From NCBI GenBank assembly GCA_965197745.1, contig CBDANS010000007.1, positions 1,952,001-2,016,000 on the forward strand: a stretch of DNA of 64,000 nt. The letters are read 5' to 3'. The notes beneath the pieces are model-generated. The model made no database searches and was not told the DNA's origin. It was given only the letters and a program-made list of their open reading frames with translations. This document shows positions 62,458 through 64,000 of the stretch, piece by piece (the first letter of the stretch is position 1; each line of letters begins with the position of its first letter). The DNA comes from Opitutales bacterium (lineage in GTDB: Bacteria; Verrucomicrobiota; Verrucomicrobiia; Opitutales; PNEW01). The translations under genes and the position numbers were made by a program.

Positions 62458-63180
62458 ATGAGCGAGTCGTACCCCTCTCCGCTGCGGCTGAGAGATATAG
62501 CAGTAAGTGAACGCCCACAGGAACGTTTAGAGAAATATGGCGCAACTTCACTGAGTGATACAGAATTATTAGCGATGATCCTGCGTAGTGGGAGTAAAAA
62601 CAGGAATGTTCTGGCCCTGTCCACCCACATTATTGCAGAGGCAGGATCACTTGCCGGTCTTCTCACCTGGAGGGAATCCGATTTTAGTAAAATGACCGGT
62701 ATCGGCAAAATTAAAGCTTTGCAATGCATGACAGTTATGGAAATTGCGCGTCGAATCCTTTCACATAATCCTAATACAGAGCCAACTTTCAATTCTCCCG
62801 ATGCGGTCTTTGAGCATTTTCGACCTATTACCGCAGGTATAGAAGTCGAGAAATTCTGGGTCCTTTGTCTGAACCGTAAAAACCGCCTTATCAAACGCGT
62901 GGAAACAACTTCAGGCACCGCTAACAGCAGCCTTGTTCACCCGAGGGAAGTCTTTCGTGAAGCCATATATTATAGTGCCTCTGCCATTATTTGTGTGCAC
63001 AATCATCCCAGTGGTGACCCTTCGCCGAGCAGTGCCGATATTCGCATTACCCGCCAACTCAAAGAAGCTTCAAAAGTCCTCTCCATTGACTTGCTTGATC
63101 ATATTGTCGTTGGGCAAGTAGCTGCGGATCCTAACGGAAACGGATTTTATAGCTTTGTTGAAGCAGGTCTTATTTCATAA
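62458..63180 (+). CDS. radC: RadC (JAB domain) protein
   Basis: ERPQERL, LSDTELLA, HhH motif GIGKIKA, VHPREVF, HNHPSGDPSPS and LLDHIVV. Confidence 0.95.
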   Translation: MSESYPSPLRLRDIAVSERPQERLEKYGATSLSDTELLAMILRSGSKNRNVLALSTHIIAEAGSLAGLLTWRESDFSKMTGIGKIKALQCMTVMEIARRILSHNPNTEPTFNSPDAVFEHFRPITAGIEVEKFWVLCLNRKNRLIKRVETTSGTANSSLVHPREVFREAIYYSASAIICVHNHPSGDPSPSSADIRITRQLKEASKVLSIDLLDHIVVGQVAADPNGNGFYSFVEAGLIS

Positions 63181-63269
63181 CCCTCTGCATAATCCTGCAC
63201 CAAATTAAATAAAAAATCTTCGTCTGCCTCTGCCTCTTGTAGGTTACCCCGCGATGATAAGACAACCTT

Positions 63270-63544
63270 TTGAGTCCTTCCGAGAATGGGTCATCGTAAC
63301 ACGTCGGAGGAAGGACTGGAAAAAGCTTTCAACAGTGTCTACGGTTGAGAGTGCCAGGAACTCCCGACTCCTAATAAGAGGAGCCGGGAGCAAATCGGAA
63401 GAGTTCATTCTGCCTCTGGAACCCGCGTTAGCGGAGTTCAAGACGAAGCCTGGGAACTTCCGATCTAACCTGGCTAATCTCAAACAATTGAAAGAGCCCG
63501 GATTATACCCCCGCGAGCTCATCTTGACAAGACCGAGATAGCCA
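63270..63544 (+). ncRNA. Putative IS110 bridge RNA (target-binding and donor-binding loops)
   Basis: 5' hairpins followed by two stem/internal-loop/hairpin modules; loop sequences TCTGCCTCT and ACAAG match the element junction; 5' boundary uncertain. Confidence 0.75.
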
Positions 63545-64000
63545 TGAATGAAAAAAAACACACCCTCATCGCCATAGATATAGCCAAAAACACCTTGCAA
63601 GTGCAAAGTGCAGAGCAAAGTTACGCTCTAAGCAACGACAAGTCGGGACTCAAAGAACTGCTCAAAGCCATAGGAAAGATGGATGCCCCCTTTGTGGTGT
63701 GCGAAGCCACAGGAGGCTACGAGCGCGCCTTGTTGAGCGCTTTGCATGAAGCGCAGATTGTGGTGTGCCTGATTAATCCTGCGCGCGTACGGGCCTTCGC
63801 CACGAGCGATGGCATCCGTGCAAAGACCGATAAGATCGATGCCAAGGTATTGCTGCGCTTTGCTCAGCAAAAGCAGTTGTCCCCAACAGCTCCCCCGACA
63901 CCCGAACAGCAACAGATGACTGCTTTACTGGATCGACGCCATCATCTGAGCGAACAGCTTGGCCGCGAGAAGAACCGCTTGCAGAACAGTCCCAAGAGCA
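63544..64000 (+). CDS. IS110-family recombinase/transposase, N-terminal RuvC-like DEDD domain (partial; absent from the ORF track)
   Basis: Manual translation [18 protein letters not shown]...[10 protein letters not shown]...[10 protein letters not shown]...[11 protein letters not shown]..., open to the window end. Confidence 0.95.

Follow-up and report, generated by a model that had tools for sequence, protein, structure and literature searches.

The insertion sequence and its recombinase

The window, the whole 64,000-nt stretch of DNA that was analysed (G000:C7:1952001-2016000), closes inside an insertion sequence, the right part of which was read beyond the window end. On the plus strand the element occupies 63238 to 64000 of the window and continues to window-equivalent position 64486 (G000:C7:2015238-2016486), a full length of 1249 bp that is set by four 1249-bp genomic copies, eleven empty sites, and a single 1256-nt contig of run X1 spanning 63236-64491. 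That contig is broken at both ends, as is expected at the boundaries of a repeat. The element lies between radC (62458-63180; PF04002) and a convergent gene, and is organized as a left end of 306 nt (63238-63543), a recombinase gene coding for 310 aa, and a right end of 10 nt (64477-64486). At the left junction, on the plus strand, the left target (LT) TCTGCCT and the CT core occupy 63229..63237, with the flank reading TCTGCCT-CT-TGT at 63229-63240; directly 3' of the recombinase stop codon, this copy reads C-ACAATTG-CT-TCGTCC.

The recombinase gene (P0001) begins with the ATG at 63544 on the plus strand and is cut by the window end (63544..64000; full ORF 63544-64476). Its 310-aa product matches DEDD_Tnp_IS110 (PF01548; residues 5-148, E 2.4e-23, 83 bits where the cut-off is 29) and Transposase_20 (PF02371; E 2.6e-19, residues 189-273). 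Matches among solved structures extend over residues 8-300 and are to ISCro4 (E 5.1e-38) and IS621 (E 1.3e-37), with no other solved relatives found. Residues D12, E54, D96, D99, S234, and G235 align with D11, E60, D102, D105, S241, and G242 of IS621 (residue numbering was counted by hand, and the PDB chain was taken as the native numbering plus 2), and mutation of any of D11, E60, D102, D105, and S241 is reported to abolish IS621 recombination (PMC11208160, PMC11208158). Relatives recovered in a metagenome scan share at most 44% identity with this recombinase, and the close lineages used here come from genome collections only.

Predicted bridge RNA of the left end

The left end carries a series of stems, hairpins, and loop strands, many of which had been named in a preliminary description made from the letters of the window, and every string named there is present in the sequence where it had been placed. 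Upstream of the bridge RNA proper are two extra 5' hairpins (63273..63352, plus strand; ~63273-63317 and ~63325-63352), which are predicted in a 309-nt fold and whose sequence the L006, L016, and G040 lineages have retained. The bridge RNA 5' stem-loop CTCCCG...CGGGAG follows (63361..63390, plus strand); it folds, and one of its pairs has changed on both sides among three close lineages. The target-binding loop module (63394..63464, plus strand) is built on the stem ATCGGAAGAGTTC (63394-63406) / GAACTTCCGAT (63454-63464), and encloses on its 5' side the LTG strand TCTGCCTCT (63409-63417), then the inner hairpin GAACCCGC-GTTA-GCGGAGTTC (63419-63439), the RTG (right-target guide) strand AGACGAAG (63441-63448), and the handshake bases (63449-63450). 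The donor-binding loop module (63471..63544, plus strand) has the stem TGGCTAATCTC (63471-63481) / GAGATAGCCA (63535-63544) with a bulged A63477, the LDG strand ACAATTG (63484-63490), an inner hairpin (63494-63520), the RDG strand ACAAG (63527-63531), and handshake bases at 63532-63533.

The loop strands correspond closely to the ends and flanks of the element. As had been proposed, the 5' strand of the first loop is identical to the left flank (63409-63417 and 63229-63237), and the 64-kb window contains three occurrences of TCTGCCTCT, one in the loop and two that overlap each other in the flank, where 0.36 would be expected; none of 100 shuffles reaches three. The LTG matches LT plus core at 9/9 positions in all four genomic copies, and the reverse complement of the RTG matches the core plus the right target (RT) at 7-8 of 8. 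On the donor side, the LDG repeats the 7 nt that directly precede the CT at the right terminus (64478-64484) and covers these 7 non-core bases only, the loop having AA where the core CT would pair. The RDG is the reverse complement of CTTGT at 63236-63240 and is complementary to the CT-TGT of the left end, with pairing limited to TGT and the core. The handshake bases pair with neither of their own cognate DNAs (C63449 not with target T7, and A63532 not with donor G7); their complements are donor position 7 (G) for C63449 and target position 7 (T) for A63532. This is the rule reported for IS621, by which, in each 3' strand, the base that follows the complement of the core pairs with the other DNA at position 7 and not with its own (PMC11208158).

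A fold of the 207-nt RNA reaches -79.5 kcal/mol (z = -5.66; 0/200 shuffles are as good). The minimum-energy structure recovers the first module and both inner hairpins without the basal stem of the second module, TGGCTA pairing instead with an upstream GCCAGG (63353-63358 with 63469-63474); the donor-module basal stem has the support of covariation in relatives and not of the single-sequence fold. We note that the GCCAGG/CCTGGC helix and the donor-module basal stem TGGCTA/TAGCCA are mutually exclusive, and that both are invariant across three close lineages save for one G-U pair in L016; on these models the two may represent a conformational switch. The 3' strand of the donor stem (63535-63546) contains the Shine-Dalgarno-like bases GAGA/GAGG and ends on the recombinase ATG, an arrangement in which folding of the guide would be predicted to hide the ribosome site; a donor stem ending on the start codon is also seen in G040 and in 9 of the 21 distinct covariance-model matches listed. 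An RNAalifold structure of three close sequences that paired the two guide strands with each other was rejected because those columns vary with the flanks. Against Rfam 15, neither 63100-64000 nor L001 1-4000 gave a family whose score reached or approached its gathering score.

Genomic copies, empty sites, and the host repeat

The genome holds four copies of the element by BLAST, each of 1249 bp, with 1-2 differing positions inside the element and all ORFs intact. TCTGCCT-CT precedes all four, including each of the three copies other than the one in the window, where the preliminary description had expected further insertions to lie, and the right flank is TCGTC[C/T]; in wider context, all four read TCTTCGTC[T/C]GC[C/G]TCTGCCT-CT, then the element, then TCGTC[C/T]TC. 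The same description had anticipated the right end, which it could not see, as a heptamer starting in ACA, followed by CT and the flank TCGTCT. The heptamer (ACAATTG) and the CT are exact, and the flank agrees at 6/6 positions in copies C and D and at 5/6 in the window copy, which has TCGTCC. The target is TCTGCCT-CT-TCGTCT and the donor ACAATTG-CT-TGT(AGG), much as the preliminary description had inferred. A bridge RNA can thus be legible enough in the bare letters for an unseen element end to be predicted from it.

The reconstructed empty site TCTGCCTCTTCGTCT (TCTGCCT-CT-TCGTCT, a 15-mer) is present without the element at 11 exact genome sites, and at 49 when up to one mismatch is allowed; about 0.008 exact sites are expected by simple arithmetic (8.9 Mb, two strands). 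A check of empty sites had been suggested, and comparison of the occupied form LT-CT-[element]-CT-RT with the empty form LT-CT-RT at these 11 sites reveals no target-site duplication beyond the core CT.

The empty sites sit in hexamer runs with the consensus aTCTTCG TCTTCG TCTGCC TC[T/C]TCG TCTTCG TCC, of which there are at least 109 loci in the genome and none in a shuffled 0.51-Mb contig. The target is one 'word' of this hexamer-run repeat, which lies in many of the intergenic spaces of this Opitutales genome. The repeat, (TCTTCG)2 TCTGCC (TCTTCG)2 TCC and its variants, is represented in the window at 63217-63237 and elsewhere at, for example, C7:1455760-1455800. After a hexamer run there often comes an AT-rich stretch of ~25-30 nt with a GGTGGAACGCGCTGCC-like motif behind it, the ctattgtcattgcgag motif trails many of them, and in the sister genomes a hexamer run and a GGTGGAACGCGCTGCC-like motif are likewise paired beside the insertions.

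Several other features of the surrounding DNA were observed. Copies A and B have a common right flank over ~90-100 nt (window-equivalent 64487-64580; G000:C7:1407530-1407620), with 91 of the first 100 nt identical and random similarity beyond, and their left flanks are unlike, which puts the target word on the border of a larger, repeated unit of intergenic DNA. A stretch at window-equivalent 64642-64708 (L001:2642-2708) that contains TATTGTCATTGCGAGCGGAGCGTGGCAATCC reaches, in runs X1, X3, and X4, a summed contig depth of 12,000-38,000, where other stretches have tens, depths that are not taken as copy number; it is a very abundant short repeat, possibly common to other organisms in the samples. 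At G000:C7:1372248-1372309 (L005) there is a solo left-end fragment of ~75 nt that is nearer to the L006 lineage, has TGCCT-CT-TGT at its 5' side, and stops after GAATGGGTC; we read it as a relic of another bridge-RNA insertion sequence, with a truncated left end.

Guides and flanks change together in sister lineages

Sister elements (L006-L015, L016, L167, and G040) have 71-90% nucleotide or 74-83% protein identity to the element described here. They share its RNA scaffold, the right-donor (RD) sequence TGTAGG, and the handshake bases, or nearly so, and are unlike it in their target guides, which are TCATCGT, TCTTCGT, or CGCATGT as against TCTGCCT. In G040 the LDG and the corresponding donor sequence (LD) differ as well, both having changed from ACAATTG to ACAGTTG.

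Loop strands and junctions were extracted from 19 copies representing five lineages in Opitutales genomes. The LTG matches LT plus core at 7-9 of 9 positions in all 19 copies, and the RTG matches core plus RT at 5-8 of 8 in the 18 that can be scored, L014 being excluded for a deletion. Besides the four copies of the own genome, L167 has the same guides and sits at TCTTCCA-CT (7/9). The ten L006-L015 copies have the LTG TCATCGTCT and flanks TCATCG[T/C]CT or TCTTCGTCT (8-9 of 9; RTG 5-8 of 8), and L016 has the LTG TCTTCGTCT and the RTG-derived sequence CTTCCTCA at a site reading TCTTCCT-CT-TCGTCT (8/9 and 6/8). The G040 target is wholly different, CGCATGT-CT-CACTA: its guides (loci L169, L173, and L177) are the LTG CGCATGTCT and the RTG-derived CTCACTAA, and its flanks are CGCAT[G/A]T-CT and CTCACTAC (CT-CACTAC) in 3/3 copies (8-9 of 9 and 7/8).

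Cognate pairs of guides and flanks agree at a mean of 11.44 of 13 non-core positions. For non-cognate pairs, made by setting G040 guides against the flanks of the other lineages or their guides against G040 flanks, the mean is 2.47 of 13, and no pair exceeds 4. Cross-scores among the hexamer-run lineages discriminate less, since their targets are related and two of the lineages have guides in common. The handshake rule for the donor (G7 with C) holds in 18/18 scorable copies, target position 7 is T in 13/19, and several natural insertions are at sites with 1-3 mismatches. The left ends of L012 and L014, two of the ten L006-L015 copies, show minor insertions or rearrangements; part of the inner hairpin and RTG linker is missing from L014, whose guide is probably defective.

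Covariation in distant relatives

A covariance model was built from three lineages with an IS621-like structure that was written by hand, and it finds full-length matches at 14/100 and 13/54 of the loci of relatives in two sets, with recombinases of mostly 33-43% identity. All but one of these matches (26/27) end at or just 5' of the recombinase start on the same strand. The exception, L118:1198-1326, is the sole match 3' of its recombinase ORF (173-1102), and could reflect either a second element in tandem or another arrangement. The other 127/154 loci have no model match at E <= 1, many of them being short contigs or distant elements.

Covariation in the stems had been proposed as a check on the structure, and it is found in both sets. 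In the first (11 distinct sequences), 92.5% of cells are paired and 24/36 pairs have changed on both sides; in the second (also 11 distinct sequences), 91.4% of cells are paired and 29/37 pairs have changed on both sides, figures that come from alignments fitted to the model structure and are biased in its favour. In the controls for both sets, none of 500 shuffles reaches the observed values, and sliding the partners by 1-3 columns leaves 27-44% paired. The left ends of these relatives are ~170-255 nt long and of different sequence. Their first-loop strands are variable and their second-loop strands conserved (GAACA[A/G]T... and ...ACAAG), which agrees with what has been reported for the family (PMC11208160).

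The relatives also carry matches between guides and DNA. An LDG heptamer (with at most 1 mismatch) lies beside a CT or AT core just 3' of the ORF in 14/14 matches of the first set, as judged by eye. The 3' loop strand has at least 6 contiguous matches to the core plus right flank in 6/9 distinct elements, and the 5' loop strand at least 6 matches to the left junction in ~7/9. L040 has an AT core, which is matched in three guides. We also note that in a Syntrophobacteraceae MAG (L058:1005-1215) the insertion is at the end of a long array of an 8-nt repeat (CATTCACC / TACTCACC) and the loop strands match those words, so that by its sequence L058 appears to be another bridge-RNA insertion sequence that targets tandem arrays.

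Comparison with IS621 and other RNA-guided elements

The anatomy parallels that of IS621 of E. coli (PDB 8wt6), as the preliminary description had recognized from the order of the parts, the CT core, and the donor of the form ACA...CT-TGT. By comparison with the two IS621 reports (Durrant et al. 2024, PMC11208160; Hiraizumi et al. 2024, PMC11208158), the likeness extends to the order of 5' stem-loop, target loop, donor loop, and recombinase gene; to a long left and a short right end; to the CT core and the donor form ACA....-CT-TGT; to 5' loop strands that match the top strand and 3' loop strands that are complementary; and to the handshake rule, the DEDD residues, the Ser-Gly catalytic residues, and a target within a genomic repeat. 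The segments of the target module (stem, linker, LTG, linker, hairpin, linker, RTG, linker, stem) measure 13, 2, 9, 1, 21, 1, 10, 3, and 11 nt here and 13, 3, 9, 1, 12, 2, 9, 4, and 12 in IS621 (PMC11208158). Those of the donor module are 11+2+8+2+27+2+11+1+10 here and 11+2+8+2+22+2+11+1+9 in IS621, and the bulged A at position 7 of the donor stem (A63477) corresponds to the flipped-out A116 of IS621 (PMC11208158).

There are also differences. By the alignment, the protein is identical to IS621 at only about a third of its residues (E 1.3e-37). The left end, 306 nt long, carries two additional 5' hairpins. In the target loop the inner hairpin measures 21 nt as against 12 nt and the RTG is longer here (6 non-core nt); in the donor module the LDG stops short of the core and the stem terminates at the start codon. 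The target of IS621 is a REP palindrome, unlike the word of a hexamer tandem run that is the target here, and the host here is an uncultured-type Opitutales genome. Elements of the IS1111 group, with their seekRNA, likewise have recombinases of the DEDD family and an RNA-guided choice of site. They are named in PMC13604230. According to PMC11208160, the long end of such elements is the right one and the short end the left, and there are subterminal inverted repeats of 7-17 bp; the end layout is opposite to the one found here (left 306 nt, right 10 nt). The best match among solved structures, the ISCro4/IS622 bridge recombinase (PDB 9t56; E 5.1e-38, residues 8-300; bioRxiv 10.1101/2025.05.14.653916), is a distant orthologue, compared with this one by protein sequence.

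The preliminary description had spoken of a new RNA-guided recombinase. It was right in that the element is a bridge-type member of IS110, and it overstated the newness, as the kind has been known since 2024 (PMC11208160). Since thousands of bridge-RNA orthologues were predicted in that year (PMC11208160) and the field is an active one, this is one more bridge recombinase of the IS110/IS621 kind and no new system; the orthologue may already be listed in the supplementary tables of that report. The known mechanism is left unchanged. What the element adds is a compact Verrucomicrobiota orthologue (310 aa, 1249 bp) with natural target and donor fully specified, and with several useful traits: the right-target guide is longer, the copies are four and nearly identical, cognate sites stand empty in large number in its own genome, and the guides of its sisters are naturally reprogrammed. 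The series is also a data set for the specificity of bridge recombinases, in particular the tolerance of mismatches at LT position 7, RT position 6, and the handshake positions.

Proposed mechanism and alternative explanations

The element is, we think, very likely an IS621-type insertion sequence of the IS110 group, autonomous and with a guide RNA for the target and for its own ends. The left end would encode a bridge RNA of ~185 nt comprising the 5' stem-loop, a loop that binds the target, and another that binds the donor, and the donor loop (ACAATTG and ACA-AG) would specify the joined ends of an excised circle (ACAATTG-CT-TGT). A tetramer of the 310-aa DEDD/Ser recombinase, together with the RNA, would then exchange strands at the common CT core, and the 1249-bp element would enter TCTGCCT-CT-TCGTCT without target duplication. 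For RNA production, the pairing of RNA with DNA, the circular intermediate, the junction promoter, and the chemistry, IS621 is the model from which we infer these steps.

The identities between loops and flanks could instead be by-products, with the site chosen by the protein or by DNA-DNA homology, the left end being composed of site copies or CT-rich DNA, and its structure serving as a translational leader. The target is indeed low-complexity hexamer-run DNA that is common in this genome (at least 109 loci), and the donor stem overlaps the Shine-Dalgarno-like GAGA/GAGG and the ATG, with 9 of the 21 distinct matches listed ending exactly on the start codon. We regard such an origin as extremely improbable, however, as guide and flank have changed together in five lineages, including the unrelated and non-repetitive G040 target in 3/3 copies; the identities fall on the unpaired strands of two covarying loops in the orientation and register of IS621, and the handshake bases fit; and the homologous IS621 requires its RNA for recombination in vitro (PMC11208160). 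It is also very unlikely that the left end codes for a small protein instead of, or besides, an RNA guide. An ORF of 95 aa (63254-63541) stops 2 nt before the recombinase ATG, its frame is open in 4/5 lineages including the 71%-identical G040, within the range of 71-90% nucleotide identity, and peptide stretches such as FESFREWV...TRRRK are kept. Against its being a gene, there is no Pfam family at E <= 0.01, and the substitutions are spread without third-position bias (27, 40, and 38 at codon positions 1, 2, and 3 in comparison with G040, and 10, 11, and 12 with L006). The frame is moreover broken by a 1-nt indel in L016, its bases also belong to stems with covariation in relatives, and the relatives' left ends are of other lengths (~170-255 nt) and unlike in sequence. 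The ORF was rejected as a gene on the even substitutions, the L016 frameshift, and the lack of a Pfam match, with some residual doubt.

An RNA guide in the left end is also compatible with copies that moved recently and are now immobile relics, in which the match of guide and target records past activity only. No circle junction or empty-site joint was found among the contigs of four runs, but contigs drop rare variants, so the missing joints say little. The hexamers of the candidate junction promoter (below) are weak, and the truncated left end at G000:C7:1372248-1372309 is read as the relic of a related element. The four copies, on the other hand, differ at 1-2 positions, their 310-aa ORFs are intact with all catalytic residues, and sister genomes carry 10 and at least 5 copies, which makes immobility of the own copies unlikely. 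We conclude that the bridge-RNA insertion sequence is genuine and, judging by these sequences, has probably been active recently.

A broader reading joins the target words with the start-codon arrangement: the bridge RNA of this clade would have been naturally retargeted to fast-changing intergenic tandem-repeat 'words' of its hosts, and its transcript would toggle between guide and messenger. We put this forward tentatively, as a possibility that we rather doubt. The words are TCTGCC/TCTTCG here and TCATCG/TCTTCG and TCTTCG/TCTTCC in the sisters, with an unrelated and unique-looking site in G040 and an octamer array in a distant relative, and the toggle is proposed because the donor stem holds the Shine-Dalgarno-like bases and the start codon and competes with the GCCAGG/CCTGGC helix. 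If true, the clade would be a natural series for the co-evolution of guide RNA and host repeat, and for RNA folding that gates recombinase synthesis.

Candidate promoters

A junction promoter has been reported for IS621 (PMC11208160, PMC11208158). When the ends of the present element are joined in silico, TTGCTT-17 nt-TAGGTT is formed across the junction, a weak match with 3/6 positions for each hexamer, in which TAGGTT (63240..63245, plus strand) would be the -10-like half of a candidate circle-junction promoter. Relatives have TTGACT-17-TATGAT or TATGTT in equal register at the junction. In a sigma-70 scan of the linear sequence, the sole promoter-like site is on the minus strand opposite the donor module (63530-63502, TTGTCA-17-TATAAT, 11/12 matches), and could drive an antisense transcript.
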